This document shows positions 3,546 through 47,106 of a DNA stretch of 48,474 nucleotides, piece after piece. The notes under the pieces are model-generated. The model was not told the origin of the DNA, did no database searches, and was given only the letters and a program-made list of their open reading frames with translations. The position numbers and the translations under genes are program-made. The DNA comes from a virus. Taxonomy: Duplodnaviria > Caudoviricetes. The stretch is taken from IMG/VR virus record IMGVR_UViG_3300011443_000019, positions 1 to 48,474 of that record. The stretch is one strand, 5' to 3'. The first letter of the stretch is position 1. Every line of letters begins with the position of its first letter.

Positions 3546-5504
3546 ATGTTGAACAGCCGGGCCTATTCGACCCTCGACCACGTCAAAACGGTCGATGAGG
3601 ATCAACGAATCATCGAAGGTATTGCGAGCACGCCCGAGGTTGATAGGGCTGGCGATGTCGTCGTGCCTGAGGGTGCGACGTTCAATCTGCCCATGCCGCT
3701 GCTCTGGCAGCATCAAGCCGATCAACCAATCGGGAGCATTCTCAGTGCGACCGTCGGCAAGTCCGGCATCAAGATTCGTGCGCAGATCGCCAAGGACATA
3801 GGCCTCCCTGAAATTGAAAGAGCTTGGCGACTCATAAAGTCCGGCCTTGTGCGTGGGTTCAGTATCGGGTTCAAGGCCTTGGAAATGGAACCGCTGAACG
3901 CGAAGGATCCGTGGGGCGGTCAGAAGTTTACGAAGTGGCTGTGGTTGGAAACCTCTGCGGTCACGATTCCCGCGAATGGATCGGCCTCAATCTCGCTCAT
4001 CAAACAACTCGACACCCAACAGCGCGCCGCGACAGGCACCGCTGGACGTGTTCACTCGTCATCTTCGCCTACTGCCGTGGGCTCCAAGTCGAAAAAGGAG
4101 TCGCCAATGGCGACAGCATCAGAACAATTGACGTCGGCATTGGCCGAGCTCCGGACGAAGTCCGAACGACTCACGCAACTGAATGACCTCGAAGGCGCCG
4201 ACGGCAGTCTCGAGGACGCACAGGAGCAGGAAGCGACCCAGTTGGCCGGGCAGGTCAAGGCCTTGTCCGGAAAGATCGACCGGCTCAAGGCGATGGAAAT
4301 GGCCCTGGCCGCGCAAGCGCGCCCGGCCCTCGTCAAGCAGGCCACGGGCGATGTCCGCGACGTGCACACCCAGCACATCGAAATGGGCAAGGCACCGGAA
4401 CAGCAGTTGCCGCCCGGGATCGAACTGGCGAAGTATCTGATCTGCCGCGCGGCGGCGCTCCGCATGGGCGTCTCAGCGCTGGACCTGGCGAAGCATTACT
4501 ACCCCGGCCTGACGCGCATTCAGACGATGCTGAAGGAAGTCGTGCCGGCGGGCAGCACGCTCGACTCGACGTGGGCGGGCCCGCTCGTCTACCCGACGAA
4601 CCTCGTGAGCGAGTTCATCGAGTTCCTGCGACCGCAGACCATCATCGGCCGCATCGACGGCATGACGCGCGTCTCGTTCAATTCTCGCATCGGCGGGGAG
4701 ACGTCGGGCGGGGCGGGCTACTGGGTCGGGCAGGGCAAGGCGAAGCCGCTCACTAAGGGCGACTACAACGAGACGACCATCCCGTTCACGAAGGTCGCGA
4801 ACATCGCGGTCCTGACGGATGAGTTGGTGCGGTTCTCGAGTCCCTCGGCCGAAGCGCGGGTCCGCAGCTTGCTCGTGCGGGCGCTCCAGGAACGGCTCGA
4901 CATCGACTTCATCGATCCCGCGAAGACGGCCTCGGCGGGCGTCTCCCCGGCCTCGATTACCAACGGCATCGCGAACCTCAACGCCTCAGGCGTGACGCTC
5001 GACGCGGTCGACGTGGACGTGCAAGCCCTGATGAACTCCTTCATCACGGCGCACATCATGCCGACACACTGGATCATGCCGAACTCGGTCGCGCTGGCGC
5101 TCTCGCTCATGCGGACGTCGCTCGGGGCGTATGCCTTCCCGACGATCAACATGAACGGCGGCACGTTCTACGGGCTTCCCGTCGTGACGTCGCAGTATGC
5201 GATTCTCGGCACGCCCGCGAACAACCTCATCGTGCTCCTGTCGGCGCCGGAAATCTTCCTGGCGGACGATGGCGGGTTCTCGATGGAGATGAGCCGCGAG
5301 GCCTCGCTCGAGATGGACGACGCGCCGACGATGGATGCCGGGTCACTGGGCTCACCGGCCGGTGCCACGGGCTCGACGGTCGTCTCGATGTTCCAGACGA
5401 ACAGCGTGGCACTCCGCTGCGAGCGCTACATCTACTGGACGCGTCGGCGGAATGCTGGCGTGGCCTGGATGGATGACGTGCAGTGGGCCGCCGGCACGTC
5501 GTAG
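3546..5504 (+). CDS. Fused HK97-type prohead protease and major capsid protein
   Basis: N-terminal protease motifs (EGIAST..DRAGD, LLWQH, GFSIGF, ETSAVTIPAN), coiled-coil delta domain, HK97-fold capsid C-terminus (SMFQTNSVALRCER). Confidence 0.93.
   Translation: MLNSRAYSTLDHVKTVDEDQRIIEGIASTPEVDRAGDVVVPEGATFNLPMPLLWQHQADQPIGSILSATVGKSGIKIRAQIAKDIGLPEIERAWRLIKSGLVRGFSIGFKALEMEPLNAKDPWGGQKFTKWLWLETSAVTIPANGSASISLIKQLDTQQRAATGTAGRVHSSSSPTAVGSKSKKESPMATASEQLTSALAELRTKSERLTQLNDLEGADGSLEDAQEQEATQLAGQVKALSGKIDRLKAMEMALAAQARPALVKQATGDVRDVHTQHIEMGKAPEQQLPPGIELAKYLICRAAALRMGVSALDLAKHYYPGLTRIQTMLKEVVPAGSTLDSTWAGPLVYPTNLVSEFIEFLRPQTIIGRIDGMTRVSFNSRIGGETSGGAGYWVGQGKAKPLTKGDYNETTIPFTKVANIAVLTDELVRFSSPSAEARVRSLLVRALQERLDIDFIDPAKTASAGVSPASITNGIANLNASGVTLDAVDVDVQALMNSFITAHIMPTHWIMPNSVALALSLMRTSLGAYAFPTINMNGGTFYGLPVVTSQYAILGTPANNLIVLLSAPEIFLADDGGFSMEMSREASLEMDDAPTMDAGSLGSPAGATGSTVVSMFQTNSVALRCERYIYWTRRRNAGVAWMDDVQWAAGTS
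4095..4109 (+). promoter_or_regulatory. Internal RBS and in-frame start for a capsid-only product
   Basis: AAGGAG (4095-4100) followed 6 nt later by in-frame ATG (4107, codon 188) at the protease/delta-domain boundary. Confidence 0.65.
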
Positions 5505-5523
5505 GGCATAACCGGGTAGCAAT

Positions 5524-5563
5524 ACGAGCATCCGCCGGAGCATATCCGGCGGATGCTCGTTTC
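5524..5563 (+). terminator. Strong hairpin after the capsid gene (terminator or mRNA stabiliser)
   Basis: Perfect 16-bp stem ACGAGCATCCGCCGGA / TCCGGCGGATGCTCGT with 5-nt loop; only a short T run follows. Confidence 0.75.
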
Positions 5564-5576
5564 ATGTTGAGGGTGG

Positions 5577-7264: not shown

Positions 7265-8241
7265 AGCCTTCCGATCTGGCGATGATCACGCGCGTGATGG
7301 GGCCGGTAGTGCGGGAGTTCACGGCCAAGGCGGTTGCGGAAGCGGTCGCGGTTGAGCGCGAGCGTCACGCGGCACTCGAACTGCGGATCCTGGAACTCGA
7401 AACGCGTCCGGCGCCTCTCGCTGGCAAAGATGGCCTGAACGGGGAGAAGGGCGATCCGGGCGAGAAGGGCCTTGACGGGAAGGACGGTCTACCAGGGAAG
7501 GATGGCCGCGACGGGATCGACGGCAAGGACGGCGTTCCTGGCGTGGATGGGAAAGATGGCGCACCGGGTATGCACGGCAAGGACGGAGCACCTGGGACTG
7601 ACGGGAAAGATGGCGCTCCAGGGCTGAACGGGAAAGACGGAGCCGATGGCCTCGACGGCAAGGACGGGGCGCCCGGGCTGAACGGCAAAGATGGATCCGA
7701 CGGACTTCACGGCAAAGACGGAGCGGCCGGCCGTGACGGGAAGGACGGGGCTCCTGGAGATCGCGGGTTCCAAGGCGAGAAGGGCCTTGATGGTGCGCCC
7801 GGTGATGCTGGCCGTGATGGTCGCGATGGACTCCCTGGCGCGTCAGGAAAGCCGGGAGAAAAAGGGCTCGACGGACGCGACGGCGTGGATGGGCTCGGCT
7901 TCGATGACATCCAGGTGGCGCACGACGGCGAACGGTCCTTCGACATCAAGTTCGTGCGAGGGGATCGGGTGAAGTCGTGCGGCACGTTCACAATCCCCGC
8001 GCAGATCGATCGCGGCGTCTATCAGGCGGGCAAGACCTACGAGCGCGGCGACGGGGCCACGTGGGACGGACACTTCTGGATCGCCCAGACGAAGACGCAC
8101 GAGCCGCCGGGGGAAGGCTCATCCGCGTGGCGCTTGGCGGTTCGACGTGGTAAGCAAGGCCGCGAAGGGAAGAAGGGCGATCCCGGAGCGGATGGCCGCG
8201 ACCTCACGCAGATGGATCCGCAAACGGGGCGGAAATGGTAA
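7261..8241 (+). CDS. Collagen-like head-associated protein
   Basis: 53 uninterrupted Gly-X-Y triplets; C-terminal GVYQAGKTYERGDGATWDGHFWIA...WRLAVRRG domain. Confidence 0.85.
   Translation: MKPSDLAMITRVMGPVVREFTAKAVAEAVAVERERHAALELRILELETRPAPLAGKDGLNGEKGDPGEKGLDGKDGLPGKDGRDGIDGKDGVPGVDGKDGAPGMHGKDGAPGTDGKDGAPGLNGKDGADGLDGKDGAPGLNGKDGSDGLHGKDGAAGRDGKDGAPGDRGFQGEKGLDGAPGDAGRDGRDGLPGASGKPGEKGLDGRDGVDGLGFDDIQVAHDGERSFDIKFVRGDRVKSCGTFTIPAQIDRGVYQAGKTYERGDGATWDGHFWIAQTKTHEPPGEGSSAWRLAVRRGKQGREGKKGDPGADGRDLTQMDPQTGRKW
7423..7899 (+). repeat. Gly-X-Y collagen repeat with GKD-GAP-GLN-like periodicity
   Basis: 53 triplets counted directly from the translation. Confidence 0.95.
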
Positions 8242-8897
8242 AGCGCGCGATGACGTTCGCCTCAGTGCCCCGGCTCTTGCCTGATGGCGGGACGGTGCTC
8301 GTGATGGGCTCGGGCCCGTCACTCACTCAGTCCGACGTGGACCTCGCGCGGGCGCATGTCTCGGCCGTGATCGCAGTGAACGATAGCTACAAGTTGGCGC
8401 CAGACGCGGACGTGCTCTATGCGGCGGACGCCCGCTGGTGGGGCTGGCACAAAGGCGCGGTGGCCCACGTCACGGGCGGCGGGGTGAAGTATCCCGAGTT
8501 CACCGGCCGGTATAAGTATGCCCTCGCCGCCGTCCCCGGCTACCCCGACGTGCAGGTGCTGCGCCGTGGACCGCAGACCGGCCTGACGTTGGACCCTGGG
8601 CGCGTGGCGCTTGGGCTCAACGGGGCGTATCAGTCGATCAACGTCGCGGTGCATCTCGGGGCCTCGCGGGTGCTCTTGCTCGGCGTGGACATGCAAGGCG
8701 GGCACTTCTTCGGGCGGCACCCGAACAACAGCGGCCCACCGTTTTCCATGTGCCTGCAACGGTTCGCGACACTGGTCGATCCACTCAAGACGGCCGGGGT
8801 CGACGTGGTGAACTGCACGCCCAAGAGTGCGCTCAAGGCGTTTCCGCTGATGGATCTGAGCGAGGCGTTTCCGATGGCGCAGGCGGTGGCGTCGTGA
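8235..8897 (+). CDS. Maf/DUF115 (MptE-like) fold putative glycosyltransferase
   Basis: VLVMGSGPSL, VIAVND, DVLYAAD, NGAYQSINVAVHLGASRVLLLGVD motifs. Confidence 0.7.
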   Translation: MVKRAMTFASVPRLLPDGGTVLVMGSGPSLTQSDVDLARAHVSAVIAVNDSYKLAPDADVLYAADARWWGWHKGAVAHVTGGGVKYPEFTGRYKYALAAVPGYPDVQVLRRGPQTGLTLDPGRVALGLNGAYQSINVAVHLGASRVLLLGVDMQGGHFFGRHPNNSGPPFSMCLQRFATLVDPLKTAGVDVVNCTPKSALKAFPLMDLSEAFPMAQAVAS

Positions 8898-9589
8898 AGA
8901 TCCCACTGTCGACCACGTTTGATCCATCGCAGGTCGATCGCGTGCGCGATCTGCTCGACGGTCGCGCGTGTGTCGTCGTCGGGTCCGCGCCGTTGAAGGG
9001 TCCGCCGGACCTGTCCGAGACAGACGTGGTCATTGCGGTCAACGGCGGGATCTCCAGCGTGCCGCGGGCGGTCGATCTCTGGGTCGTCGCCAGCCGGCCA
9101 CAGGACAAGCCGGGGAGCGGGCAGATCAAGCCCTTGCACAAGACGATGCTCCACCAATTGCACAAGACGATGCTCCACCAAGCCAAGGGGCGCACAGCTG
9201 GACACGTCCTGTTTCTGCGTGGGCCAAAGCACGCGAGCGAGGGCGACACGTTGGCGATGCTCGACGTGTTGGGCTGTCGGTATGCCTCGTGGTCCGTGCT
9301 CGACAAGCCGACGAAGCAGGGCCTCGAGAACGATCTCTGCGCGCGGCCGGGGAGCAAGGATCCGTGCTCGTCGGGGATTCTCGCGACGGCGATTGCGGTC
9401 TATTGCGGCGCGGCGTCCGTGCGGCTGGTCGGGTTCTCGCTCAGTCCGGGCTACCACTACTTGCCGAAGGAACGGCCACAGTCGTGGTGGCGGAACCACG
9501 TCGCAGCGGATCGGCGGGCGCTCAAGGCGCTCCGGGCGCGCTATGGGGCGACGTTGTCGGGGTCGATCCTGGAGGCGGTCGGGGCGTGA
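8894..9589 (+). CDS. GT29 sialyltransferase-like protein
   Basis: GTG start overlapping upstream stop; CVVVGSAP..DVVIAVN (sialylmotif L-like), CSSGILATAIA..VRLVGFS (S-like), YHY, terminal HxxxxD. Confidence 0.65.
   Translation: MKIPLSTTFDPSQVDRVRDLLDGRACVVVGSAPLKGPPDLSETDVVIAVNGGISSVPRAVDLWVVASRPQDKPGSGQIKPLHKTMLHQLHKTMLHQAKGRTAGHVLFLRGPKHASEGDTLAMLDVLGCRYASWSVLDKPTKQGLENDLCARPGSKDPCSSGILATAIAVYCGAASVRLVGFSLSPGYHYLPKERPQSWWRNHVAADRRALKALRARYGATLSGSILEAVGA
9134..9181 (+). repeat. Perfect 24-bp in-frame tandem duplication (LHKTMLHQ x2)
   Basis: TTGCACAAGACGATGCTCCACCAA at 9134-9157 and 9158-9181. Confidence 0.97.
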
Positions 9590-10212
9590 AAACCGTCATC
9601 TTCCTCGGCAAGCGGACGGCGCCCGGGTCGCCACGCGAGCGGTGGCCGGAGGCGGAACTCTGGGGCACGACCAACAGCAACGTGAAGTATGCGCAGAAGC
9701 GCGACAAGGAACGTCGCGTCATCGGGACGGTCGACGACTGGACGGCCTGGTGGGAACTCCACCCGTTCGGGCCGGTGCCCGGCTATGAGGGCGTCAAGCG
9801 CAAGCGTCCGGCGGCGTATCGCTGGTATCAGACCTTGCCCGGGCCGAATCAGCCTGGCTACCGGCCGCTGTGGTTGGCCGAACTCGATCCGACGATCCCG
9901 GCCGGCGTGTTGTTTCCGAAGGCGCGCGTGCTCGACGCCTTCAAGATTCCCGGCGAGGGCCACGGGTGGTTTACCTGCCAGGTCGATCTAATGATGGCCT
10001 ACGCGATCCTGGAGGGTTACGAGCACATCATCCTGCACGGGCACGGGGTGAGCCGCGAACTCAAGCACATGATCGACCACGTCGGGATCGTCTACTGGAT
10101 CGCTCTGGCACGCGAGCGCGGGATCAAGGTGACGGTCGTTGCGCCCTCGTGGTATCTCGCGCCGAAGAACCCCTACGGGGTCTCGGCCGGGGACTGGGGG
10201 CTGCGACGGTGA
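9586..10212 (+). CDS. Putative glycosyltransferase, divergent GT29/Maf-like fold
   Basis: GTG start; TVIFLG...ELWGTTN...FTCQVDLMMAYAILEGYEHIILHG parallels the motif order of the two upstream genes. Confidence 0.5.
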   Translation: MKTVIFLGKRTAPGSPRERWPEAELWGTTNSNVKYAQKRDKERRVIGTVDDWTAWWELHPFGPVPGYEGVKRKRPAAYRWYQTLPGPNQPGYRPLWLAELDPTIPAGVLFPKARVLDAFKIPGEGHGWFTCQVDLMMAYAILEGYEHIILHGHGVSRELKHMIDHVGIVYWIALARERGIKVTVVAPSWYLAPKNPYGVSAGDWGLRR

Positions 10213-10889
10213 AGCACAAGATCGGCTCGGCGGCGCACCTGGCGCATCGCTTTCTTGATCGCGGGGATGCCGTACTCGACATCGGCGCGGCCGACGGTGC
10301 CTATACGCGCGTCTACGCGGATCGCGTCGGACGCACGGGGTCCGTGCTCGCTGTGGAGCCGAATGTGCGACATCTCGGGCAACTGCTCGACGCCTGCGAG
10401 CCGATGCCGTGGGTATCGATCTGGTATGGAGCGGTGGGTCGCGATCGGCTCGGGCTAGGGTGGCTGCACGAAGACGCCGACGATCCGAAGCGGAGTTCGC
10501 TGTGGGCGTCGAATGTCTCACGACCCGGGCACGGCTACCACGTCGCGGTCACGACGGTGGATGCCCTGATCGAGACAATGCCGCAGCAGCCAAAGTTGAT
10601 TCAAGTCGACGCCCAAGGGGCCGAGGCCGACATCGTTGCGGGGGCGGGGAAGGCTTTAACGGCGCCGATCGTGTGGGTGCTCGAGATCTGGCGGGAGGGC
10701 CTCGCGAATGCCGGCGCCACCGTCGATGACGTGCTCCTGCCATTCGAGGTGCACGGCTACACGGCGCGGTCGATTGCGGGCGCGCGGATCGAGTGGGACG
10801 ACCTTCGGGAACAAGTCAGGCCACATCTCGGCGTGACACATGCGGATGTCGTGTTGGTGCCGGATGCGCTGAAGGGGGCGGACTGGTGA
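10209..10889 (+). CDS. FkbM-family SAM methyltransferase
   Basis: VLDIGAADG, VLAVEPN, TVDAL, LIQVDAQGAE motifs. Confidence 0.85.
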   Translation: MKHKIGSAAHLAHRFLDRGDAVLDIGAADGAYTRVYADRVGRTGSVLAVEPNVRHLGQLLDACEPMPWVSIWYGAVGRDRLGLGWLHEDADDPKRSSLWASNVSRPGHGYHVAVTTVDALIETMPQQPKLIQVDAQGAEADIVAGAGKALTAPIVWVLEIWREGLANAGATVDDVLLPFEVHGYTARSIAGARIEWDDLREQVRPHLGVTHADVVLVPDALKGADW

Positions 10890-11503
10890 ATCGGAAATGG
10901 TTCGCCCAGTCCGGTGAGGATCGCACGATCGCGCGGATCTTCCGGGAGATCGGCGTGCTGAATCGGTTCGCGGTGGAGTTCGGCGCCGCCGATGGCCGGC
11001 GGAAGTCGAACACGGCCTACTTCCGGGATCGCGGCTGGTCCTCGCGGCTCTTCGATGTCGACCCGCTCGACCCCGAAGTGCAACACGCGGACATCACCGC
11101 GGAGAACGTCAACGACATCTTCCGCGCCGCGGGCGTGCCGCAGACGTTTGACTTGCTCTCGATCGACATCGACGGCAACGACTTGTGGGTGTGGAAGGCC
11201 TTGACGTTCCGGCCGCGGGTGGTCGTCATCGAATACAACCCGAAGTGGTCGGCGTCGAAGTCGCGGACGGTGCCCTATGACCCGCGCCGTCGATGGGACG
11301 GCACAAACTTCTATGGAGCCAGTGCGTTAGCCCTTCGAAGGGTCGGGATCGAGAAGGGTTACGACTTGGTCGCCGCGACCCGGTCAAATCTGATCTTCGT
11401 GACGAAGGGCCTCCTGCCGGCGATCTCGGCATCGGAGGTGCGCCGGCCGGTCAAGATGAAGCGGAAGGATCCCGAGAAGCGGGCCTGGGAGATCTACGCA
11501 TGA
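10886..11503 (+). CDS. FkbM-like SAM methyltransferase
   Basis: AQSGED, VEFGAADG..SNT, DLLSIDIDGND, PRVVVIEYN motifs. Confidence 0.85.
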   Translation: MNRKWFAQSGEDRTIARIFREIGVLNRFAVEFGAADGRRKSNTAYFRDRGWSSRLFDVDPLDPEVQHADITAENVNDIFRAAGVPQTFDLLSIDIDGNDLWVWKALTFRPRVVVIEYNPKWSASKSRTVPYDPRRRWDGTNFYGASALALRRVGIEKGYDLVAATRSNLIFVTKGLLPAISASEVRRPVKMKRKDPEKRAWEIYA

Positions 11504-12507
11504 TCCAGGGGGATCCGCCCATTGTGCGCGACACGCGGGATCGGCTCAAGGCGTTGGGCGCGGGTCGGGGTCCGATCATCGTGGGGCCGTGGCTGTCTGA
11601 GATTGGCTTCGAACTTCTCTACTGGATTCCGTTCCTCCGGTGGGCCTGTGCCTTCGCCAAGCTGCGCCGCGACGACCTGTGGATCGTCTCGCGGGGCGGC
11701 TGTCGCTCGTGGTATGCGGACATCGGCGCGCACTATGTCGACGTGTTCGACTTCTACACGCCTGAGCAGTTCCGCGCGGGGAATGCGCGACGGATCGCGG
11801 AACAGGCCCACCGGGCGCTGTCCTTGGGACTCCGGGAGGGGTTGACGTCGACCAAGCAACACACGCTGACGGCGTTCGACCGGGACATCCTCGGGCGCGT
11901 CAATCTGCCGAATGCGCGTGTCTTGCATCCGTCGACGATGTATGGCGTGTTCCGATCGTTCTGGCGGCGGCAAACCCCGTCACTCTACGACCAGATCACG
12001 GCACCTACCCGCTTGCGCACGGCGACCCGCGCCGAGGGCCTGCCGGCCGCCTACGTCGCCGCGAAGTTCTATGCCTCGGCCGCCTGCTCGCAATCTCCGC
12101 TCCATGCGCAGATGGTGAACGCCATCGTGCGTGCGACGGTCAAAACGACCGACGTCGTGCTCCTGCACACGGGGACGAAGTTCGACGAGCATGGGGAGTT
12201 CGCGATCGAGCCGCACCCGCGCGTGCATCGCGTGGCGATGGATCCGGCGACGAACCTCGAGACGCAGACGGCGGTCCTCGCGGGCGCGTCGGGGTTCGTG
12301 GGCACGTATGGCGGGTTCGCGTATCTCGCGCCGTTCCTCGGCGTGCCGACCCGGACGTTCTATGCGCAGGCGAATTTCAGGAAGGATCACCGCCGCGTGA
12401 TCGATCAGGTCTGCGCGACGAAGCTCCGGACCAAGTTCAGCGTCGAACTGATCGATGGCGGCCTCGCGCAGAAGGCCCAACGGCGGCGGGTGCGGTATGC
12501 GGCCTAA
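11500..12507 (+). CDS. Putative GT-B type glycosyltransferase
   Basis: ATG at 11500; GPWLSEIGFELLYWIPFLR N-terminus and GT9-like C-terminus (QTAVLAGASGFVGTYGGFAYLAPFLGVP). Confidence 0.55.
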   Translation: MIQGDPPIVRDTRDRLKALGAGRGPIIVGPWLSEIGFELLYWIPFLRWACAFAKLRRDDLWIVSRGGCRSWYADIGAHYVDVFDFYTPEQFRAGNARRIAEQAHRALSLGLREGLTSTKQHTLTAFDRDILGRVNLPNARVLHPSTMYGVFRSFWRRQTPSLYDQITAPTRLRTATRAEGLPAAYVAAKFYASAACSQSPLHAQMVNAIVRATVKTTDVVLLHTGTKFDEHGEFAIEPHPRVHRVAMDPATNLETQTAVLAGASGFVGTYGGFAYLAPFLGVPTRTFYAQANFRKDHRRVIDQVCATKLRTKFSVELIDGGLAQKAQRRRVRYAA

Positions 12508-13072
12508 TCTCTACGCGCCTGGGTCGCCGTATCACCAGAACCGTCGCTGGACGCATCCGCACTCGCTCCGGTGCCTGCAGGCGGCGATCGCGGTCCTGGG
12601 CAAGCCGGACAGCCTGATCGATGTCGGCTGTGCGGAAGGGGTGCATGTGGCGTGGGCAAAGGCGAACGGAATCGAGGCGATGGGGATCGATCTCGCCGTG
12701 CCGGAAGGGGATCCCGCACTGGTCCGCGCCGATCTCTGTCGCCCGATCGATGTGGGCGCGCGGTTCGACTGGGTGCTGTGTTGGGAAGTCGCGGAACATC
12801 TGCCCGCCGAGGCGGCCGTGACGCTCGTCGACACGCTCGTGCGGCACATGCGGCCGACGGGGCGGATCCTGTTCACGGCGGCCGGGCCGGGGCAACGGGG
12901 ACCGGGGCATGTGCATTGCGCGGAGCCGTGGTTCTGGCAAGACCTCTTCCGGTCGCACGGGTTGACGTTCGCGGAGGCGTTGACGGCGACCCTGCGGAAG
13001 CGATGGGCGACGTGCTCTCCGCTCACGCCGTGGTATGCGAAAAATGCGATGTTGTTCTGGAGGCAAGCGTGA
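12497..13072 (+). CDS. Class I SAM methyltransferase
   Basis: LIDVGCAEG, GIDL, FDWVLCWEVAEHL, ILFTAAGPGQRGPGHV motifs. Confidence 0.88.
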   Translation: MRPNLYAPGSPYHQNRRWTHPHSLRCLQAAIAVLGKPDSLIDVGCAEGVHVAWAKANGIEAMGIDLAVPEGDPALVRADLCRPIDVGARFDWVLCWEVAEHLPAEAAVTLVDTLVRHMRPTGRILFTAAGPGQRGPGHVHCAEPWFWQDLFRSHGLTFAEALTATLRKRWATCSPLTPWYAKNAMLFWRQA

Positions 13073-13782
13073 AGATTCTCTTCACGATGCGCACGGCTGA
13101 TAGGGCACCAAAGCCGAACTATCTGCGGGCGACGGTGGGGAGCCTCTATCACCACGGCGTGAGGGACATTCACGTCTTCCCGACCGATCCAGACATCACG
13201 TGGATGCGGCCTCATCCCTACGCGACGCTGCATCAACCGGACAAGCGGGTTCGGGCGAACGAGAACGGACTACGGCCGATCGCCTTGCTCGACACGATCG
13301 ACGCCGACTGGATCATCCTGAGCGAAGACGACCTGGAATGGTGCGCCGATCCGATCGGGAGTATGTCTCGATGGTTGGACGAGTTCAGCACGTCGGATGT
13401 CCTGATGTATCGGTTCTTCGCGTTCGACCAGTTGACGCAAGTGAGCGCCCACGCAGCGACGGCACCGCTCCGAGAGCAGAAGGGATCGCAAGCGGTCGCT
13501 CTCCGCGCGGACGATGCGCGCCGGTTCGCGGCCTGGGCTACGGCGCATCCGCTCGACTGGCGGCCCAAGGGAGCGCCGTTTCAGGACCGCCCGCACGACG
13601 GATTCGACAAGCTGCTCGGCTACTGGGCGCTCCAGGATCGGCCGGACGTGACGACCGGCCTCGTCTCGCGGCCGTTCTTCGTGCGACATATGGGCGTGCA
13701 CAGTAGCCTCCATATTCGCGGCCGAATGATGGATCGGCAGTTCACGGGCCGCGCGTATGAACCGGAGGCCGTATGGCGCTAG
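13069..13782 (+). CDS. Putative GT-A fold glycosyltransferase
   Basis: GTG start; RxxxPNYLRATV, WIILSEDD acidic motif, FDKLL, VRHMGVHSS. Confidence 0.65.
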   Translation: MKILFTMRTADRAPKPNYLRATVGSLYHHGVRDIHVFPTDPDITWMRPHPYATLHQPDKRVRANENGLRPIALLDTIDADWIILSEDDLEWCADPIGSMSRWLDEFSTSDVLMYRFFAFDQLTQVSAHAATAPLREQKGSQAVALRADDARRFAAWATAHPLDWRPKGAPFQDRPHDGFDKLLGYWALQDRPDVTTGLVSRPFFVRHMGVHSSLHIRGRMMDRQFTGRAYEPEAVWR

Positions 13783-14102
13783 TCACCTACGCTCAGGCGG
13801 TGCGGCATCTGAAGCAGAACGGCGTCATGGATGTAGGATCGCCGGTCGAAGAGGATACCGATCTGCTTCTGAAGATCGAGCAAGCCTCAGCCATCGTCCT
13901 GATCTATCTCAAGCGGCCGGGGGAATGGGACGTGGATTCCCTCATCTCGGACGATCCCGAGTTCGCGGTCGTGCAAGGGGCGGTGCTCAAGGTGCTCGGG
14001 AACCTCTATCGGTTCCGGGGCGATGACGAGAAGGCGAATGCGCCTATCTCGGAGGACATCGTCCAGATGTTGAGCATGTTACGTGATCCGGCATTGGCAT
14101 GA
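13773..14102 (+). CDS. Head-tail connector (HK97 gp6-like)
   Basis: LVTYAQAVRHLK...AVLKVLGNLYRFR...LRDPALA; position. Confidence 0.88.
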   Translation: MALVTYAQAVRHLKQNGVMDVGSPVEEDTDLLLKIEQASAIVLIYLKRPGEWDVDSLISDDPEFAVVQGAVLKVLGNLYRFRGDDEKANAPISEDIVQMLSMLRDPALA

Positions 14103-15035: not shown

Positions 15036-15481
15036 CCGAAGTCGACGTGATCGAACGGCTCGAGCAAGTGTCCGCCGTGACGAACGTCGTCAGCGATCGG
15101 CTGTATGCGGTCAATCCGCCACAGCAGCCGACGACGCCATACGTGCGTGTGCAGCGCATTTCGAGTCCACTCGATCAGCACTTGCGCGGGCCGGGGTATC
15201 CGGCGCAATGGCGGTTCCAGGTGGACTGTTGTGATGCCGACGGCGACGGCAAGGATCCGCTCGGCACAGTCGATGCCCTCGCGGCGGCGGTGATCGGCGA
15301 TGGTCTGGGGCCTGGGGCCAGTGGGTTATTCGGGTGGATGGGACAACTCGGGGGCAGCCCGGTGCGGTTCAACGTGCGGAACGTGGAACTCCTGCACGCG
15401 GGGGATCGCGAGTTCTTCCCGGAGGAAATGCGGATGGTGCGGGTGCGAACGGACTTTCTGTTCCATTGGAGCCCGGCCTAA
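15032..15481 (+). CDS. Tail terminator (DUF3168-like)
   Basis: GTG start; DRLYAVNPPQQPTTPYVRVQRIS, RFQVDC; position before tail tube. Confidence 0.82.
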   Translation: MTEVDVIERLEQVSAVTNVVSDRLYAVNPPQQPTTPYVRVQRISSPLDQHLRGPGYPAQWRFQVDCCDADGDGKDPLGTVDALAAAVIGDGLGPGASGLFGWMGQLGGSPVRFNVRNVELLHAGDREFFPEEMRMVRVRTDFLFHWSPA

Positions 15482-15554: not shown

Positions 15555-16064
15555 ATGGCCGACAGAACCGATACTTTTTACGCCGCTGAAGAAGCCGTCA
15601 GCGGCTACGGATCGCAATTGATGGTGGGCGACGGCTCGAGCCCGGAGCAGTTCGAAGCCATCGCCACGATCACCACGATCACGCCTGGGTCCATGACCAC
15701 GGCGGACATCCTCCGGACGCATCTCCGTAGCCCGGACGCGCATCAGGAGCACATGCCCGGCCTCCGCGACTCGGCGGCCTTCACCTGTGAGGGGGTGTGG
15801 CTCCCGGAGGAACAGAGCCAGTCGAATGCGGGCGGCGGCACGGGGCCATTTGCGACGGGCGGCCTCGTGGCGCACTGGCGCGATCGGCAGGTGCGGAACT
15901 ACAAGATCGTCATCATGAAAGCGGCTGGCAGCCCGGCCAATATCGAGTGGCCGTTCCGCGCCTACGTCTCACAGTTCCAGCCTGGTTCGATCACGGGGAA
16001 CGACAAGGTGAACTTCACGGCCGGATTCCAGCCGACGGCGGCGTATGACGCGAGCCTGCCCTAA
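15555..16064 (+). CDS. Major tail (tube) protein
   Basis: AGGAG RBS; THLRSPDAHQEHMPGLRD, RNYKI, FRAYV, lambda-V-like pattern. Confidence 0.9.
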   Translation: MADRTDTFYAAEEAVSGYGSQLMVGDGSSPEQFEAIATITTITPGSMTTADILRTHLRSPDAHQEHMPGLRDSAAFTCEGVWLPEEQSQSNAGGGTGPFATGGLVAHWRDRQVRNYKIVIMKAAGSPANIEWPFRAYVSQFQPGSITGNDKVNFTAGFQPTAAYDASLP

Positions 16065-19917: not shown

Positions 19918-20750
19918 TGGCGGCGGGTCCGACCCTCTCACCTGGGGCCGCGTTCGGGAAGTATGCCCTCCCGACGGATGACGTCGCCGCCGAGGCCGCG
20001 TCGGTCGTGGGCAGTGCGGAGGATTCCGAGTATCCCGCCGAGAACCTGGTCGCGCCCACAAATACCGGGCATCTGAATCTGCCCTCGCGGCCGGCGAAGC
20101 TCACGACCACGAGCGGCTACTGGGATCTGGAGTTCAACGATCCGATCACGGTCGTCGGCGTGGCGCTCATCTACACCAACTTCGACTCCGGCCTGGACGT
20201 GACCATCGAGGCCGGGACCGGATCGCCGCTCACGTTCTCGCAAGCCGTCCCGGTCGGCAACGACTGGGAAAACGATTGGATGCCGAATCCGTTCGTGCTG
20301 TTCGACTCACCGGAAACACATACACACTGGCGGCTATCGATCAACGAGGCGAATACCTACCCGGTGCAGGTCGGGCGCCTGCTCTTGCTGACCGACATTC
20401 GCGACCTCGAGAACGACGTCCGGTGGGGCGTGGTCGAGGACGAGGAACAAGGGCAGATCGAGCACGCGACCGAGGCGCGCGTCGAGCTCCTGTATGAACT
20501 CTTCGGGCCGCGCCGATCGTTCGTTGGCGAACTGGCCTTAATGAACGACACGTCCTCTGAACTCATCACGCTCTATCGCACGGCGCGCAATCGAATCCTC
20601 CCGTGGCTGCTCATCCCGGACATCGACATCAACGATGCGTGGTTTGTGCGGTTCCAAGAGCCGAAGTGGTCACGGACCCGCGAGATGATCCAGCACAACA
20701 TCTTCCCGTTCCGTGTGACCGAACTGTCACGCGGCTTGCCCTGGCCCTAG
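19917..20750 (+). CDS. Distal tail (Dit-like) protein
   Basis: First gene after tape measure; beta-rich with jelly-roll-like N-terminus (YPAENL). Confidence 0.6.
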   Translation: MAAGPTLSPGAAFGKYALPTDDVAAEAASVVGSAEDSEYPAENLVAPTNTGHLNLPSRPAKLTTTSGYWDLEFNDPITVVGVALIYTNFDSGLDVTIEAGTGSPLTFSQAVPVGNDWENDWMPNPFVLFDSPETHTHWRLSINEANTYPVQVGRLLLLTDIRDLENDVRWGVVEDEEQGQIEHATEARVELLYELFGPRRSFVGELALMNDTSSELITLYRTARNRILPWLLIPDIDINDAWFVRFQEPKWSRTREMIQHNIFPFRVTELSRGLPWP

Positions 20751-20756: not shown

Positions 20757-22817
20757 ATGTCCGTTCGCTTCTATCTCCTGAATGAAGCCGCGCCCTACAC
20801 GCCGCCGTCCTGGGATGGCGGGTGGGACATCACGAACGGATCCGGCGTCAAGGCGTTCGATCCGCACAAGTTCGGCGGGGCCATAGGTAGTCCGACGTCC
20901 GTCGCGGACACCGTCACCACGAGTCCGTATCATATCGGCGTCCTGCAACTCGTCAGCCGACGTCTCAAGCCAGGGCAAACGATCAGTGGCACGGTCGACC
21001 TGATCGTGAGTGTGTTCGGCTCCGGTGGAGACGCCGAGTTCTTCACACGCGTGCATCTCTACGTGATCGATACGTCCGACGATTCGATCGTCGGGACGTT
21101 GCTCAACGAGTATCAGGAAAGCAGCGGCGGCGGGGCGACGGAATGGCCGCAGTTCAATACTGGGATCGCCTTGCAATCCGCGCAGGCCCTATCCTCCGTG
21201 GCGATCCCGAACGACAGCGGTGACTATCGCCTCGTCGCGGAACTCGGGTGCAACGCCGAGAACACGCACAGCACGAGTCGCCTGGCCGGTATGCGCTACG
21301 GGGCACGGACATCCAATTTCGCGCCACTCAACGATCTCACGGTCGGCGGGAGCACGTCGACGCTGGCGGGGTTCCTGGAGTTCTCCGACGACATCGAACT
21401 CGCCGACGACGTCGTCCCGAACGTCACCGTCGAAACGGCGATCGCCATCACGCCTGACGCGCCTGCGACGCAAGAGTTATACGACGCCGGCGTGACGTAT
21501 GAGGCCTGGTATAAATACACCGCCCCAGCCGGAGTCAAGTTTGTCTCGGTGTGGGGGTTTGGCGATCTTGCGGCATATAAGCCATTCGTCCGAATCTATC
21601 GCGCGGGCGGCGTGGCCCATGTCGACGAGATAGGCGATGAACGCCGCAATAAGCCGCTGGAGTTCGTCACCGTTCCGGGGACGACCTACTATCTCCTGTT
21701 TAGTCACTACATCGAATTTAGCCCCTACAACGGGAACCCGGATCCGTCTACGTTGTCCGTGACCCTTGAGCTTGCGCCAACCGGCGTGGCTCCAGCAGGG
21801 TCGTTGCTCGTTATTGACGATACGCCGGGCTATCCGGCCGTGCTCTTGAGCGCAGAGGATGGCGATGTAATTCGGTTTGTCTCACCGTTCGCTGCCAGCG
21901 AGGCCGGGTCGATGCTACCGAATGGAATCTCATGCTTCGTCGATCTGGATCCGGCGAGCAGCGAGATTGCAACCGTCTCATCAGTAAAGCTATACGATGC
22001 CTCGCTCAATCTGACCGTCACGTTACCGCTCAATGTCACGGCGCAAGGCCCGATGACGTCGAACAACCTCGATACGTTCTATGTGTCGAATGCAGATGAC
22101 GAAAATGGCGACATAGATCTCGGATCGATTCATAAGGTAACTAGTAGCGGCGTCTACCTCGGGAAAATCGCCTCCGTCACAGGCGTCTCGTCGCCGCGCG
22201 CACTCTTGGGCATGGCGGTGTCGCTGGACGAGTCGATCTTGTATTATTCGCGCTATCACATCCAGGATGGGATGGAAGTTGGTGCGATCTTCAGATGGGA
22301 TCTCACCACGGATACCACGATGCCAACGTTCGTGGCGTCCATTTCGAATTATCACATCTGTCGGGAAATTCTGTGTCTCGCCGACGGCACGATTCTCGCG
22401 AGTTACAACCACTTCAATAGCGTTGGATCGTTCGTGCAGCGATACGACACGTCAGGATCGGTGCTGAACACCTACACCCTAGAAGCATCAATTCGGGTCA
22501 GCGACGAGATCAGGCTCGCCCATGATCCAGACAATCCGTTGTCGTTCTGGGTCTGGACGAAGACCGGAACAGGGACGTCTATGTCGAAGTTTCGGCACAT
22601 CCTTGTCGATGACGGCTCGGATCTCGTTACGCCGATAGAAGTCCCGTTTTTTAATACCGGCCTGTATGGGCCTCCGGAAACCGCTACACCGGAGATGTTT
22701 GGACATAGCTTCTCCTGCCCGTTCGTGGTCATGCGCAGCGAGACTACTGGTGGCGGCGGCGACCCGGTAGGCGTCATTGGGCCGCTCGTCTGGGTGCATA
22801 TCCCGAGGCGCACCTGA
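20757..22817 (+). CDS. Minor tail protein with PPC-like and beta-propeller-like regions
   Basis: 686 aa; AWYKYTAP...GTTYYL segment; propeller-like repeats in a lower-GC 3' half. Confidence 0.6.
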   Translation: MSVRFYLLNEAAPYTPPSWDGGWDITNGSGVKAFDPHKFGGAIGSPTSVADTVTTSPYHIGVLQLVSRRLKPGQTISGTVDLIVSVFGSGGDAEFFTRVHLYVIDTSDDSIVGTLLNEYQESSGGGATEWPQFNTGIALQSAQALSSVAIPNDSGDYRLVAELGCNAENTHSTSRLAGMRYGARTSNFAPLNDLTVGGSTSTLAGFLEFSDDIELADDVVPNVTVETAIAITPDAPATQELYDAGVTYEAWYKYTAPAGVKFVSVWGFGDLAAYKPFVRIYRAGGVAHVDEIGDERRNKPLEFVTVPGTTYYLLFSHYIEFSPYNGNPDPSTLSVTLELAPTGVAPAGSLLVIDDTPGYPAVLLSAEDGDVIRFVSPFAASEAGSMLPNGISCFVDLDPASSEIATVSSVKLYDASLNLTVTLPLNVTAQGPMTSNNLDTFYVSNADDENGDIDLGSIHKVTSSGVYLGKIASVTGVSSPRALLGMAVSLDESILYYSRYHIQDGMEVGAIFRWDLTTDTTMPTFVASISNYHICREILCLADGTILASYNHFNSVGSFVQRYDTSGSVLNTYTLEASIRVSDEIRLAHDPDNPLSFWVWTKTGTGTSMSKFRHILVDDGSDLVTPIEVPFFNTGLYGPPETATPEMFGHSFSCPFVVMRSETTGGGGDPVGVIGPLVWVHIPRRT

Positions 22818-37412: not shown

Positions 37413-37423
37413 GTAACTGATCG

Positions 37424-39047: not shown

Positions 39048-39066
39048 CGGCGCAGGGGAAGGGCGC

Positions 39067-40557: not shown

Positions 40558-40680
40558 ATGACAACAGTGTAAGCACGGGCGCATTCTAGCGTCCAGCCTT
40601 CTCGCCATCTACAACCTATGGCGTACCCGCAGCCTGTTTCGTCGTGCATGGCGACCCGTCTATGTGGAGTCGCGTCCTAG

Positions 40681-42258
40681 GTGCCGCCTAAACCTCCCAT
40701 AGCGAAACTGAGCGCCCCGTCACAAGTGCGCCAGGGGGTCCCGTTTGAAGTAGATGCCTCGGCCTCGACAGATGGCCCTGGCGGCGGCGGGATCACCGGG
40801 TACGATTTCGAATTCGACGACGGCACCACGGAACACACAGACCAACCGCAGGCCACGCACACCTACCACCAGGCCGACGGGCCATACTCCGTCACGGTCA
40901 CGGTCACAAACAAGAAAGGCCGCAGTAGCAAGTCAGATCCGGCCATCATCGAGGTCATCGCGGAGCAGCCACCCGTGCCGGTGGATTGTGTGTTGTCGGA
41001 CTGGTCCGAATGGTCTGAGTGGGTCGATAACGGCGACGGCACCGAAACTCGGAGCCGGATCCGGACGATTGTGGTTGAACCGGCGAACGGGGGGCAGCCC
41101 TGCGAGCATCAGGAAGAAACCGAACGGCGGTACATCGCTCTGCCGGTTGATTGTGTGCTTGGGCCGGAGTTCATCACAGCCGAGACACCGCTCGAAGCCT
41201 GCCAGCCTGACGGATTTCAAGCCGTGGAAGTGGCCTGGAGCAAGACGATCCTCACGCCTCCGGCGAACGGCGGGCAGGCCTGTGGAGCGACCAGTGGGAC
41301 ACGGATCGAGAAGAGGGCGTGTGTGTATGTGCCGGCGACGGATGATCATGCGCGATTCGACACCTTGCGGGCGTTGCCGCAATGCCTCGTGTCGGAGTCG
41401 CTACGGGTGCAGTCAGAGATCGACGCGCTGACGGGTGCCGGGGTATCGACGGCCTATGTCGCCAAACAGGATGAGGCGGAACTGATCATCCCACCCGACC
41501 GGGCTAGCCTCGCCGGGAATCAGCAGCTCATCATTCCGATTCGGCAGACGACCGGACCCCTGCTCCTGACGTGGGATGTCTGGTACGGCCATGAGTGGCG
41601 CAAGGTGGAGCACGGCGGCTCCTACGACTACGCCTTTGACAAGTCCTACCAGCACAAAGAGTTTCAGTGCGGGTTCGACACGGATGGCGGCGGAGGGAAG
41701 GGCACCATCTTCTTTGAGACGCAGACGATGTATCAGCGCGGGACGGCCGATCACGTCGGCGCGGTGGGGCATCGACTGTATGGGGTCAAAGCGCCTGGGA
41801 CCACGATCGAAGCCGGAGAACCCAACGCTCACGGCTCTCCGTATGGCCCTGGTACCGAGCCCGATGGCGTGGCGATGATCCAGCACTCCACGTATTGCCG
41901 GCACGTGCTGGAGATCCGTCCCAACCAGCCCGCCAGCGCCTTCCCAGAGTGGGAAGCTCTCACAGGCGTCACGCTGCCACCGGACGAGGTCTACCACATG
42001 TATTCCTCGTGGTTCCTGACACCGACGCAGACGTATCGGCTGCTGTTCAGGATACCGGCGGGCCGCTACAAGGGTGCGACACCGGAGATCCTTAGAGACG
42101 GTCTATCGGCGTTCTGGTTCGAGCACAACACGAGCTCCAAGGTCGGAGTGATGACTGGTCCTGGCACGATTCGGTCGCGCGACTTTGTGTGCCTGAAGGG
42201 GTACGTGCTTCCGGACGTGCCAGAGGACGATGCGCTGATCTTCGAGAGGCCGTCGTAG
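40681..42258 (+). CDS. PKD plus two spondin-type TSP1-like repeats plus beta-rich C-terminal domain
   Basis: VDASASTD..FDDGT..HTY..YSVTVTV (PKD); PVDCVLSDWSEWSEW..RSRIRTIVVEPANGGQPC. Confidence 0.8.
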   Translation: MPPKPPIAKLSAPSQVRQGVPFEVDASASTDGPGGGGITGYDFEFDDGTTEHTDQPQATHTYHQADGPYSVTVTVTNKKGRSSKSDPAIIEVIAEQPPVPVDCVLSDWSEWSEWVDNGDGTETRSRIRTIVVEPANGGQPCEHQEETERRYIALPVDCVLGPEFITAETPLEACQPDGFQAVEVAWSKTILTPPANGGQACGATSGTRIEKRACVYVPATDDHARFDTLRALPQCLVSESLRVQSEIDALTGAGVSTAYVAKQDEAELIIPPDRASLAGNQQLIIPIRQTTGPLLLTWDVWYGHEWRKVEHGGSYDYAFDKSYQHKEFQCGFDTDGGGGKGTIFFETQTMYQRGTADHVGAVGHRLYGVKAPGTTIEAGEPNAHGSPYGPGTEPDGVAMIQHSTYCRHVLEIRPNQPASAFPEWEALTGVTLPPDEVYHMYSSWFLTPTQTYRLLFRIPAGRYKGATPEILRDGLSAFWFEHNTSSKVGVMTGPGTIRSRDFVCLKGYVLPDVPEDDALIFERPS

Positions 42259-44389: not shown

Positions 44390-44393
44390 CTAT

Positions 44394-45050: not shown

Positions 45051-45059
45051 GAGTCGGTC

Positions 45060-45581
45060 ATGGCGTTGTATCAGATATGGAATGCGGCGATGCCGACGAC
45101 GGCCAAGGTGGCGGCAGTCACGACGGGCACGAGTATCAAGACATTGCTCCAGGTCAAGGCGAGTGCCACAGTGCAAGCCAAGATCAAGGAATGGGGCTTC
45201 CTGTGCGATGCCCCGGCGAGTGCGGCGCTGTTGTCTGTGGAACTGCTTGAGACAGACGTGGCGGCGACGGTGACAGCGCATGTCGCGGCTGGCCTGCACA
45301 AGCTGGACGCTGGTGCCCTCGGTGGCGGTGACCCCAGCACCAACCTGATTCAAGTGGGCACCACATCAACTGGCTACACCAGCTCAGGCGAAGGATCGAT
45401 CACGGCCGTGAGGCTGTTCGATGCCGTGCTGAATACCATTCCTTCGAGCAATGGCTACGAGTTTAAGAAGCAATATCCCTTGGGCTGTGAGCCGGTGATT
45501 GCGGTGGGCTTGTTCGGGCGTATCAGGGTCCATGCCTCTGTCGCCATGAACGCGCTCTGCTACATGACGATCGAAGTTTGA
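45060..45581 (+). CDS. Hypothetical structural protein
   Basis: AGGAG RBS; Thr/Ala-rich beta protein. Confidence 0.7.
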   Translation: MALYQIWNAAMPTTAKVAAVTTGTSIKTLLQVKASATVQAKIKEWGFLCDAPASAALLSVELLETDVAATVTAHVAAGLHKLDAGALGGGDPSTNLIQVGTTSTGYTSSGEGSITAVRLFDAVLNTIPSSNGYEFKKQYPLGCEPVIAVGLFGRIRVHASVAMNALCYMTIEV

Positions 45582-45585
45582 TGCG

Positions 45586-46662
45586 ATGAGACTCGGACGA
45601 GCACAGCACTTTAAGCCGCACCGGAGCAAGTTCAGGACGCCGCCGGCGTCGTACAGCCTGAACTGCGAGCCGGGGAGTTATGCCGTGAGCGGAGCTGCGG
45701 CCCTAGTGGTCGCGGGTCATATGTTGCTCGCGGCCTCTGGTGCGTACGCGGCGACTGGGTCGGCTGCGTCGTTGTCCTGGGAGCGATCACTCAATGCGTC
45801 TGCGGGTAGTTACTCGATCTCAGGGTCAGCGACGACCCTCCTATCGGCTCGAGTGGTCAACGCATCGGCTGGATCCTATGCCATCACGGGGTCGGCGGCT
45901 CAGGTTGTAGCGGCGAAGGTCTTCACGGCCAGTCCTGGCAGTTACGCACTCACGGGCAGCGCGACCACGTTGTCGCTGGTCAGGTCTATTCTGGCGAGTC
46001 CAGGCAGTTACAGTCTCACAGGCTCATCGGCCACGCTGCTCTCAGCCAGGGTCATCACGGCAAGTCCAGGCGCCTATAGCCTGACCGGCTCGAGTGCCAG
46101 TCTGCTTCGGGCGGCCCTGCTCACGTGTTCGCCTGGTAGTTACGTCATCAACGGGATCGACGCCGATCTCACGACCGCGACCGGGATCTTTGCGCTCACG
46201 GCGGAACCGGGCCACTATGCCCTCTCCGGGTCTGCGGTCTCGCTGGTGGCGGCGCATGTCATCCGGGCCGAGAGTGGTACGTATGTCCTGACGGGCGCGG
46301 CGGGATCGCTCGTCGCAAGTCGACTACTCGCGGCCAGTCCCGGGAGTTATGCCCTCACAGGATCGGCGGCATCCTTCGTGTTACAGCGGGCACTGCTCGC
46401 GAATCCGGGCGCCTACGCCATCACTGGCGCCGCGACTAGCCTGAACGCCGCACGGGTCTTTAGCCTCTCGCCTGGGGTGTATCTCATCACGGGCGCGGAT
46501 GTGACGTTCTTCTTTGGCGAACTCCCAGACATGACTGGCGCTCGTGGCGTGCGCGTCCTGGCGCCGTCCTCTGCCGCCGATGTCGCTGTCCGAGTGGTAT
46601 CAACGGCGTCGGACGTGGATGTGTCGCTTCCCTCGCGTGCGGTTCGCGTCAAGGTGATCTAA
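45586..46662 (+). CDS. 22-aa repeat protein
   Basis: About 13 tandem repeats of A-S-P-G-S-Y-x-L-T-G-S-x-A-x-L... Confidence 0.8.
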   Translation: MRLGRAQHFKPHRSKFRTPPASYSLNCEPGSYAVSGAAALVVAGHMLLAASGAYAATGSAASLSWERSLNASAGSYSISGSATTLLSARVVNASAGSYAITGSAAQVVAAKVFTASPGSYALTGSATTLSLVRSILASPGSYSLTGSSATLLSARVITASPGAYSLTGSSASLLRAALLTCSPGSYVINGIDADLTTATGIFALTAEPGHYALSGSAVSLVAAHVIRAESGTYVLTGAAGSLVASRLLAASPGSYALTGSAASFVLQRALLANPGAYAITGAATSLNAARVFSLSPGVYLITGADVTFFFGELPDMTGARGVRVLAPSSAADVAVRVVSTASDVDVSLPSRAVRVKVI

Positions 46663-47106
46663 ATGCTTGAAGGCTGCACGGACATTAAAAAGCCCTTCCT
46701 CGCCGGAGGGACACGGCTGATCACATTCCAGATCACAGACAAAGTCACGGGTGAAGGCTTTCAGCCGGACACCCTCACCATGACCATCTACGACGTGAAT
46801 CCCACAGGGGCCGGCGCTCGCGCTACGGTCTATCTCGTCGGTGGACACAAAACAGGCCCGACGGTGCTCTCGGCGATTGTGAACGATCAGGATGGCGTTG
46901 ATGTGTCCGCGATGGTGGATGTGAGCGGAAACGTGGAAGTCGAACTCACGCCTGAGGATACGGCCCTCGAAGTGCCTGATATTATCGTGAACACGCCCTA
47001 CCAGCGGAGAGTCCTATTCACCTGGACATGGGGCAGTCCTGCTCGGACAGCCCTGCACCAGATCATCATGCGGATTCAGCCCAATCGGGCCACGGTGGCG
47101 AGTTAG
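46663..47106 (+). CDS. Hypothetical structural protein (Ig-like adaptor candidate)
   Basis: Beta-rich; ELTPEDT; last gene of the module. Confidence 0.6.
   Translation: MLEGCTDIKKPFLAGGTRLITFQITDKVTGEGFQPDTLTMTIYDVNPTGAGARATVYLVGGHKTGPTVLSAIVNDQDGVDVSAMVDVSGNVEVELTPEDTALEVPDIIVNTPYQRRVLFTWTWGSPARTALHQIIMRIQPNRATVAS

Follow-up and report, generated by a model that had tools for sequence, protein, structure and literature searches.

The virus record IMGVR_UViG_3300011443_000019 was analysed over its whole length of 48,474 bases (the window) and exhibits the gene order of an HK97-type siphophage. The tripeptide Gly-Ser-Pro (GSP) recurs in its virion proteins, which raises the question of whether this is an accident of composition or, as proposed in a preliminary description of the sequence, a sequon for O-glycosylation that is read by enzymes of the phage itself. 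We describe here a real, non-random motif that is linked to a single enzyme gene (positions 8235-8897, the 8235 gene), located in a cassette of enzyme genes within the head-neck operon. Motif and gene constitute a candidate sequon-enzyme pair for phage virion glycosylation, the glycosylation itself being deduced from sequence. (G/A)-Ser-Pro in variable loops and at C-termini is likely an acceptor tag at which the 8235 enzyme O-glycosylates Ser.

Frequency and Location of GSP in the Window

The 16 sites reported earlier, i.e., 14 listed coordinates plus two in enzyme genes (9625 and 12521), all read Gly-Ser-Pro in the frame of curated genes. Counts were based on 60 curated genes (14,451 residues) and compared with a null of 1000 per-protein shuffles, which gives 4.1-4.2 GSP per genome and thus agrees with the earlier rough estimate of about four; none of the 1000 shuffles reached 16 (Poisson 6e-6). 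GSP is the top-ranked tripeptide of the window (P ~0.05 after correction for 8000 tripeptides), and its excess survives correction for composition. Broken down by gene class, there are 11 GSP vs. 1.8 expected in virion proteins, 2 vs. 0.3 in cassette enzymes, 3 vs. 1.15 in unassigned late open reading frames (not significant) and 0 vs. 0.7 in early genes, TerL and chaperones. The reported absence of GSP from TerL, portal, tape measure and early proteins was confirmed over the curated genes.

The 16 sites comprise 13 different 9-mers, in accordance with the earlier statement that they do not form a DNA repeat. When the virion genes are read in the two shifted sense frames, GSP is not in excess (3 vs. 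6.1 and 0 vs. 2.4 expected), and the antisense frames contain 17 GSP vs. 11.2 expected. Codon variety and frame tests rule out a DNA repeat or a frame-independent sequence bias as the cause. About two of the 11 virion sites are nevertheless to be expected by chance, and because a null that keeps the GS and SP dipeptide counts expects 8.4 GSP (P 0.012), the evidence from the window by itself is no more than suggestive, and it is the relatives that carry the case.

All 16 sites are on the + strand, and their setting is that of indel-rich loops, termini and a hairpin turn that aligns to one of lambda gpV. In the protease-capsid fusion (3546-5504, + strand), Ser603 (5349..5357) resides in a hypervariable loop, at one of three capsid spots at which GSP recurs, and is kept in 10/10 close relatives. 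The head-tail adaptor (13773-14102) carries the motif at Ser23 (13836..13844), which relatives either keep or shift inside the same variable loop, and the tail terminator (15032-15481) at Ser109 (15353..15361), where it is present in several phages with the cassette and lost in G001, a relative whose record is complete and whose cassette is the same. In the tail tube protein (15555-16064), Ser126 (15927..15935) occupies the β-hairpin turn that aligns to gpV, and a second Ser-Pro, SSP, is found at Ser29. Judging from the general folds, we take this hairpin turn and the capsid loops to be outward-facing.

Among the distal tail proteins, Dit, hub, minor tail and beta-helix are names given by gene position only, as PHROGs provided no named family. 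Ser103 of the Dit-position protein (19917-20750; site 20220..20228) is kept in G001, and the aligned place reads GAP in the cassette-less relatives L424 and L426. Ser45 of the minor tail protein (20757-22817; site 20886..20894) is not kept in G001. The hub-position protein (22817-25714) contains four GSP (24116, 25274, 25394 and 25541, spanning 24116..25549), three of which stay GSP in the G001 protein (71% identity) while one is ASP. In the beta-helix protein (26820-28217), Ser450 (28164..28172) lies in a Gly-rich C-terminal tail and the motif is doubled in G001. Three further sites are doubtful, namely those in a 90-residue open reading frame (29444-29716; site 29459..29467) that has no homologue among the fetched loci, in a protein with PKD and thrombospondin-1 (TSP1) domains (40681-42258; site 41833..41841, not conserved) and in a 147-residue protein (46663-47106; site 47032..47040, not kept in G001).

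Taken over all homologue alignments, GSP is retained at the sites in the capsid, adaptor, tail tube and Dit-position proteins, at three of the hub sites and at the C-terminal site of the beta-helix protein. GSP at 20886, 41833, 47032 and 12521 is absent from most or all aligned homologues. Not all of the sites reported earlier are tags, and several single ones in the window look like chance. The proposed glycan coat over the whole particle has to be restricted as well: GSP is present in many virion proteins, but portal, head-closure, neck and fibre proteins of the window are devoid of it.

Linkage of GSP to One Clade of the 8235 Gene

In a tree of 77 homologues of the 8235 gene product, one branch, termed clade A (40 rows, Shimodaira-Hasegawa approximate likelihood ratio support 97), contains the GSP-rich phages. 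GSP was counted in the core proteins of head, neck and tube (capsid, neck, tube) for the 109 of 239 loci that remained after dropping those of undecidable gene status, with fewer than two core proteins or with 90% redundancy. The expected numbers follow from amino acid composition, and sites that are homologous do not represent independent observations. The core proteins of 38 clade-A phages (window included) contain 72 GSP vs. 9.3 expected, with at least one in 35/38 phages. The corresponding figures are 4 vs. 3.4 in 11 phages of the same lineage without the gene, 16 vs. 8.3 in 30 phages with other clades of the gene and 9 vs. 7.9 in 30 other phages lacking it. GSP thus occurs at about seven times the chance level in clade-A phages and at about chance level in phages without the gene.

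The association was replicated in a scan with clade A alone, which provided, among the matches listed (80 of 579 relatives), 41 new loci that were chosen on the gene alone and whose enzyme shares <85% identity with those found before. In the core proteins of these loci there are 62 GSP vs. 8.5 expected, and 23 of 26 capsids have the motif, as compared to 0 vs. 1.8 expected in the tape measure, 0 vs. 1.5 in TerL and 2 vs. 4.4 in the portal. In whole records, GSP amounts to 99 vs. 49.0 expected in 16 gene-positive phages (window excluded) and to 32 vs. 34.5 in 14 gene-negative ones (Mann-Whitney P 8.5e-4).

Thr as an equivalent acceptor is ruled out, GTP being at chance level in clade-A core proteins (10 vs. 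10.5 expected). Glycosyltransferase (GT) clusters in general are ruled out as the correlate on the basis of the small excess in phages with other clades of the gene; furthermore, L242 and L098 carry other GTs and no GSP in core proteins. A search for a different tripeptide tag in the other gene clades yielded no convincing candidate. No gene other than the 8235 homologue is shared by all cassettes, and the smallest head-neck cassette consists of this homologue alone (L372, L377, L381). The earlier idea that the motif is read by the phage's own transferases thus stands as far as linkage to a phage cassette is concerned; the link is to one clade of one Maf-like gene, not to GT clusters generally.

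Two families of tail tube proteins allow comparison at aligned positions. For family 1, 46 non-redundant rows were available, eight of which were left out as undecidable. Ser-Pro in two hairpins is present in 31/31 loci with a cassette vs. 0/7 without, and GSP in 24/31 vs. 0/7; the 8235 homologue itself is visible in 18 of these 31 loci, the remainder being fragments. The cassette-less rows, which are placed at four spots on the tree, read GDP, GTP, TP or PD, and the gene was found in none of 10 gene-negative family 1 records, two of which are complete. A scan for family 2 covered, among the matches listed, 80 of 531 loci, and the gene was found in 3/45 records checked. Hairpin Ser-Pro in this family is present in 14/15 gene-positive rows (several of them taken over from the earlier sets; L445, L495 and L583 were left out) vs. 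1/27 without the gene, and 17/27 negatives have Thr-Pro instead. The 27 cassette-less loci with a portal-to-tube interval contain 9 core GSP vs. 7.4 expected, six of which are the same conserved hairpin of the capsid, located away from the three variable spots. In both tube families together, the residue preceding Ser-Pro is G in 29 cases, A in 26 and another residue in 14; the tag is therefore better written (G/A)-S-P. Of the sequon as originally conceived, the Ser-Pro core with a preference for G persists, and A also occurs before it. The proposal that GSP loops co-occur with the cassette is borne out, as they are at chance level or absent in homologues from phages without the cassette.

The motif moves among relatives. 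GSP is present in 36 of the 148 non-redundant capsids compared; in 34 of these it falls within one of three spots rich in indels, namely two loops and the C-terminus, and a single protein has at most three GSP. G001 has 15-16 GSP vs. 4.7 expected: additional sites are found in its collagen-like, fibre, beta-helix and PKD proteins, and the motif has been lost from the terminator and the minor tail protein. Phages that share the cassette and have capsids only 35% identical as well as other tube and terminator families contain GSP in those proteins, too. In the 38 gene-positive phages, GSP is found at 16 separate, non-homologous and mostly variable alignment positions of the core proteins, and 6/16 positions use both TCN and AGY codons for Ser. 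In the same phages, GSP counts are 0 vs. 3.1 expected in tape measure proteins, 0 vs. 4.1 in portals, 0 vs. 1.1 in chaperones and 2 vs. 1.6 in TerL. GSP has been gained repeatedly at unrelated positions, and a Ser-specific, Pro-followed motif is under selection in virion loops of phages with clade A of the gene.

Several observations weigh against this link. Most gene-negative whole records are fragments. Three gene-positive phages, G040 (2 vs. 3.4), G053 (2 vs. 2.4) and G059 (4 vs. 3.7 expected), have no proteome-wide GSP excess. Without the gene, L518 (a partial record) has VSP in the hairpin and G028 (a record 45% complete) has GSP at the capsid C-terminus, and one conserved capsid hairpin GSP occurs in 6/21 cassette-less capsids. 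On the two tail-tube trees, phages without the cassette are scattered among those that have it (4 and 6 label changes), but strongly supported branches provide only two independent contrasts in each of the two trees tested, so that this test is underpowered; when support is ignored, the two tail-tube trees give nine pairs, of which 7-9 agree and none oppose.

The 8235 Gene Product

The 8235 product (8235..8897, + strand; phrog_4603) is regarded here as a Maf/GT42-like single-domain enzyme and a candidate initiating protein-serine transferase. The name given to its family in PHROGs is alpha-2,3-sialyltransferase. PF01973 (Maf_flag10/MptE-like) matches the protein with an E value of 0.0015 and 18.8 bits, i.e., under the cut-off of 34.6, and many homologues carry precomputed PF01973 matches. 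For a structural model built from the 77-sequence alignment (predicted local distance difference test score, pLDDT, 95.5), the sole Foldseek match at E<=0.001 was Maf 5MU5 (E 2.6e-5, TM-score 0.62). VIA-align superimposed 186 residues with Z 14.4 and a root mean square deviation of 3.8, followed by CstII (1RO7, Z 11.4), MptE (8SD5, Z 10.8) and ST6GalNAc2 (Z 9.1). The product is thus predicted to have the fold of the Maf catalytic domain (Maf/CstII-like). The assignments for this protein and for the product of the gene at 13069 rest on predicted models, because PDB sequence searches with the two families gave nothing significant.

According to bioRxiv 2020.06.03.131540, PF01973 is the Maf central domain, and in Escherichia coli Maf puts Neu5Ac or Kdo directly on Ser/Thr of flagellin, probably in the cytoplasm, with two acidic residues and one Ser being essential; its Discussion leaves sequence rules for Maf acceptors as a question. 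The 8235 model aligns only to residues 257-513 of 5MU5, i.e., to this central domain, and GxGPS, NSG-like and LxGxD-like motifs are retained. The essential Maf residues, mapped by spacing only, correspond to Asp65 (present in 35/36 clade members), Ser130 (31/36) and Asp152 (25/36). Unlike Maf, which has several domains, the 8235 product (220 residues vs. 632 in the Maf structure) is a stand-alone domain that is encoded by a phage within a head-neck operon, and no flagellin was found among the 55 window open reading frames scanned. Its presumed acceptors would be several unrelated virion proteins with a common tripeptide. The folate-pathway context of the pyrophosphokinase MptE is not seen here: the fold is shared, but the neighbouring genes encode virion proteins, GTs and methyltransferases.

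Proposed Mechanism and Alternative Explanations

From the sequence data we infer glycosylation of virion Ser. Upon late expression, the 8235 enzyme would put the first sugar on tagged Ser residues in the cytoplasm. The donor would probably be a cytidine monophosphate (CMP)-activated ulosonic acid, i.e., Kdo or a nonulosonic acid, which would be supplied by the host, because no recognised sugar-synthesis gene is encoded in the window. Further along the cassette, enzymes that differ between phages would lengthen this glycan and add O-methyl groups, and interior proteins would stay free of tags. Speculatively, the purpose could be a variable surface coat that alters how the particle adsorbs, how long it persists in sediment or how readily it is attacked. 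In its most comprehensive form, this model proposes that in a widespread group of siphophages from sediment and soil a stand-alone Maf-domain enzyme reads a portable (G/A)-S-P and primes virion Ser with a Kdo- or sialic-acid-like sugar, on which interchangeable cassettes build strain-specific methylated glycans; we give this full version an even chance.

The tag could be real and tied to the cassette while the 8235 product is not the initiator and instead caps a host-placed sugar like CstII or adds a group other than a sugar. The GT42 and GT29 sialyltransferases (CstII, ST6GalNAc2) and MptE share the fold (Z 8-11) and act on glycans or pterins, MptE being a pyrophosphokinase. The PF01973 match falls short of the gathering score. 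Moreover, the window protein has Gly at the position of the putative catalytic Ser130 and Ser134 instead, as in two relatives. On the other hand, Maf, which uses a protein acceptor, is the best structural match by three Z units, and the tracking of a peptide motif with one clade of the gene is explained most simply if that very enzyme reads the peptide; its neighbours, furthermore, belong to the GT2, GT8, GT9, GT-D and FkbM families. We consider this alternative unlikely.

Very unlikely, in our view, is an explanation in which a host O-glycosyltransferase or Pro-directed kinase reads Ser-Pro, the gene-bearing phages merely share hosts and the cassette acts elsewhere, e.g., on host surface glycans. 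As to hosts, the nearest genome-bin matches are a Phycisphaerae and a Clostridia bin contig, and a host effect on GSP is conceivable. The motif-rich phages represent few related high-GC lineages, with few strongly supported contrasts. Against shared hosts as the cause, cassette-less phages that interleave on both tube trees lack the motif, unrelated capsid and tube families have it when they share the cassette, and the cassette is embedded in the head-neck operon, its start and stop codons overlapping.

That GSP is a favoured turn in Gly-rich loops, inherited and associated with the cassette by chance, has been largely refuted and is highly improbable. The weakening of the window signal by the dipeptide-keeping null agrees with it, as do the structural GSP hairpin in cassette-less capsids and the fact that DDGSP is a GT2 motif. 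However, equivalent turns are GDP, GTP, TP or PD in cassette-less homologues, and the 16 separate positions, the replication in an independently selected set and the missing GTP excess speak against it. Just as improbable is a docking epitope, without covalent change, for a decoration protein or a chaperone that accompanies the cassette: variable loops and termini are places where accessory proteins can in general bind, but the one gene shared by all cassettes encodes a protein with an enzyme fold, a tripeptide at positions that differ widely in symmetry makes a poor binding surface and Thr does not replace Ser.

Comparison With Known Systems

In the literature searched, virion glycosylation by phage enzymes is established only for mycobacteriophages. 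O-glycosylation of virions has been described for Che8, Corndog and Myrna (Freeman et al. 2023, doi 10.1016/j.chom.2023.05.028, as cited in passages of PMC13445384, PMC11256854 and PMC12363180). As far as these citing passages go, the systems share phage-encoded GTs (in the window, predicted GT-A, GT-B and two Maf-like folds), capsid and tail tube as targets and the O-linkage, which is predicted here. Differences are that the candidate first enzyme is Maf/CstII-like here and that the cassette resides in the head-neck operon. In addition, many virion proteins bear a short motif here that shifts its place, and none is mentioned for the mycobacteriophages in the citing passages. In the literature searched, which leaves out most subscription journals, no paper reports a phage virion sequon or a Kdo-linked capsid.

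Distant homologues of the 8235 product (~30-34% identity) occur in the cultured phages P1 (pmgO/pmgP region) and PAJU2 (gp10) and in Caulobacter phages such as CcrColossus (gp126), outside or far from clade A. PAJU2 exhibits the same capsid-portal-adaptor-cassette-tail layout as the window. In the regions counted, GSP is not enriched in CcrColossus (2 vs. ~2.9 expected) and PAJU2 (2 vs. ~1.5), which counts against the proposed reading. P1 pmgO and pmgP are stated to be non-essential in a table of PMC10695390, and no function for the homologues of P1, PAJU2 and CcrColossus was found in the literature searched. PAJU2 L437:7780-9723 and P1 pmgO/pmgP are distant versions of the cassette and might represent overlooked virion glycosylation in model phages.

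If the model proved true, it would assign a function to an unexplained phage family of "sialyltransferase-like" proteins with 579 relatives in one viral scan. (G/A)-S-P would then be a defined peptide signal by which proteins are O-glycosylated with an ulosonic acid in the cytoplasm, and the glycan coat of the phage would be programmable. The model would also bear on what Maf-type enzymes recognise in acceptor proteins, and a tag of three residues for glycosylating proteins at chosen sites could result from it. The motif-enzyme pair is testable in E. coli with two small genes.

Other Genes of the Cassette

The seven-gene enzyme cassette (8235-13782) is inserted between a collagen-like gene and the adaptor gene; all its genes given here are on the + strand. 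The gene following 8235 (8894..9589) encodes a second, divergent Maf/sialyltransferase-like enzyme (hhalign to the 8235 family, probability 92%, E 7e-7). In it, 8 residues are exactly duplicated in tandem; the homologues in G001 and L081 lack this duplication, which is either a real insertion or an assembly slip. No family was assigned to the next protein (9586..10212), in which xSP is conserved (GSP at 9625). Two FkbM-family methyltransferases follow (10209..10889, absent from the close relative G001, and 10886..11503). The product of 11500..12507 is a predicted GT-B fold enzyme that is distantly GT9-like (TM-score 0.57-0.61 to GT9-bearing clusters), a lead and not an assignment; its structural neighbours in the Atlas are mostly from Acidobacteriota. 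An S-adenosylmethionine (SAM) methyltransferase (12497..13072) contains the non-conserved GSP at 12521, and the last gene (13069..13782) encodes a predicted GT-A fold glycosyltransferase (AlphaFold2 pLDDT 91.9; Foldseek matches to KfiA, SpsA and POMGnT1).

The cassettes of relatives vary widely (73 families among 287 genes) and feature GT2, GT8, GT9, GT92, FkbM and radical-SAM families. Genes for a B12 radical-SAM protein (L508:13647-15239), a SPASM radical-SAM protein (L457:9937-11001), a PIG-L deacetylase (L363:5769-6509) and a nucleotide-sugar dehydratase (L493:14195-14926) point to varied glycan chemistry. At L220:7239-9953, a GT, a methyltransferase, a GT-A domain like that of 13069 and a Maf-like domain are fused in one chain of 904 residues; the respective phage (G042) has 11 GSP vs. 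3.7 expected.

Genome Organization and Further Observations

The layout of the window comprises terL (363), the protease-capsid fusion, the portal gene (5873) and the collagen-like gene (7261) upstream of the cassette. It continues 3' of it with the genes for adaptor, closure, neck, terminator, lambda-like tail tube, chaperones, a tape measure of 1045 residues and distal tail proteins. No tRNA genes were found in the window. Between terL and the capsid gene, a lower-GC (~0.57) insert (2470-3509) contains a ParB-like and a small Cys-rich open reading frame. A second late-looking block (40681-47106) is located upstream of HNH and terminase genes. It contains a gene (45586-46662) for a Ser/Ala/Gly-rich protein of 358 residues with repeated PGSY-like units and homologues in G001 and G038. 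The 525-residue protein encoded at 40681-42258 in the same block combines an N-terminal PKD domain with a spondin-like thrombospondin-1 domain (E 5e-11), has relatives in G001 and G039 and thus provides an example of a eukaryote-type module in a phage.

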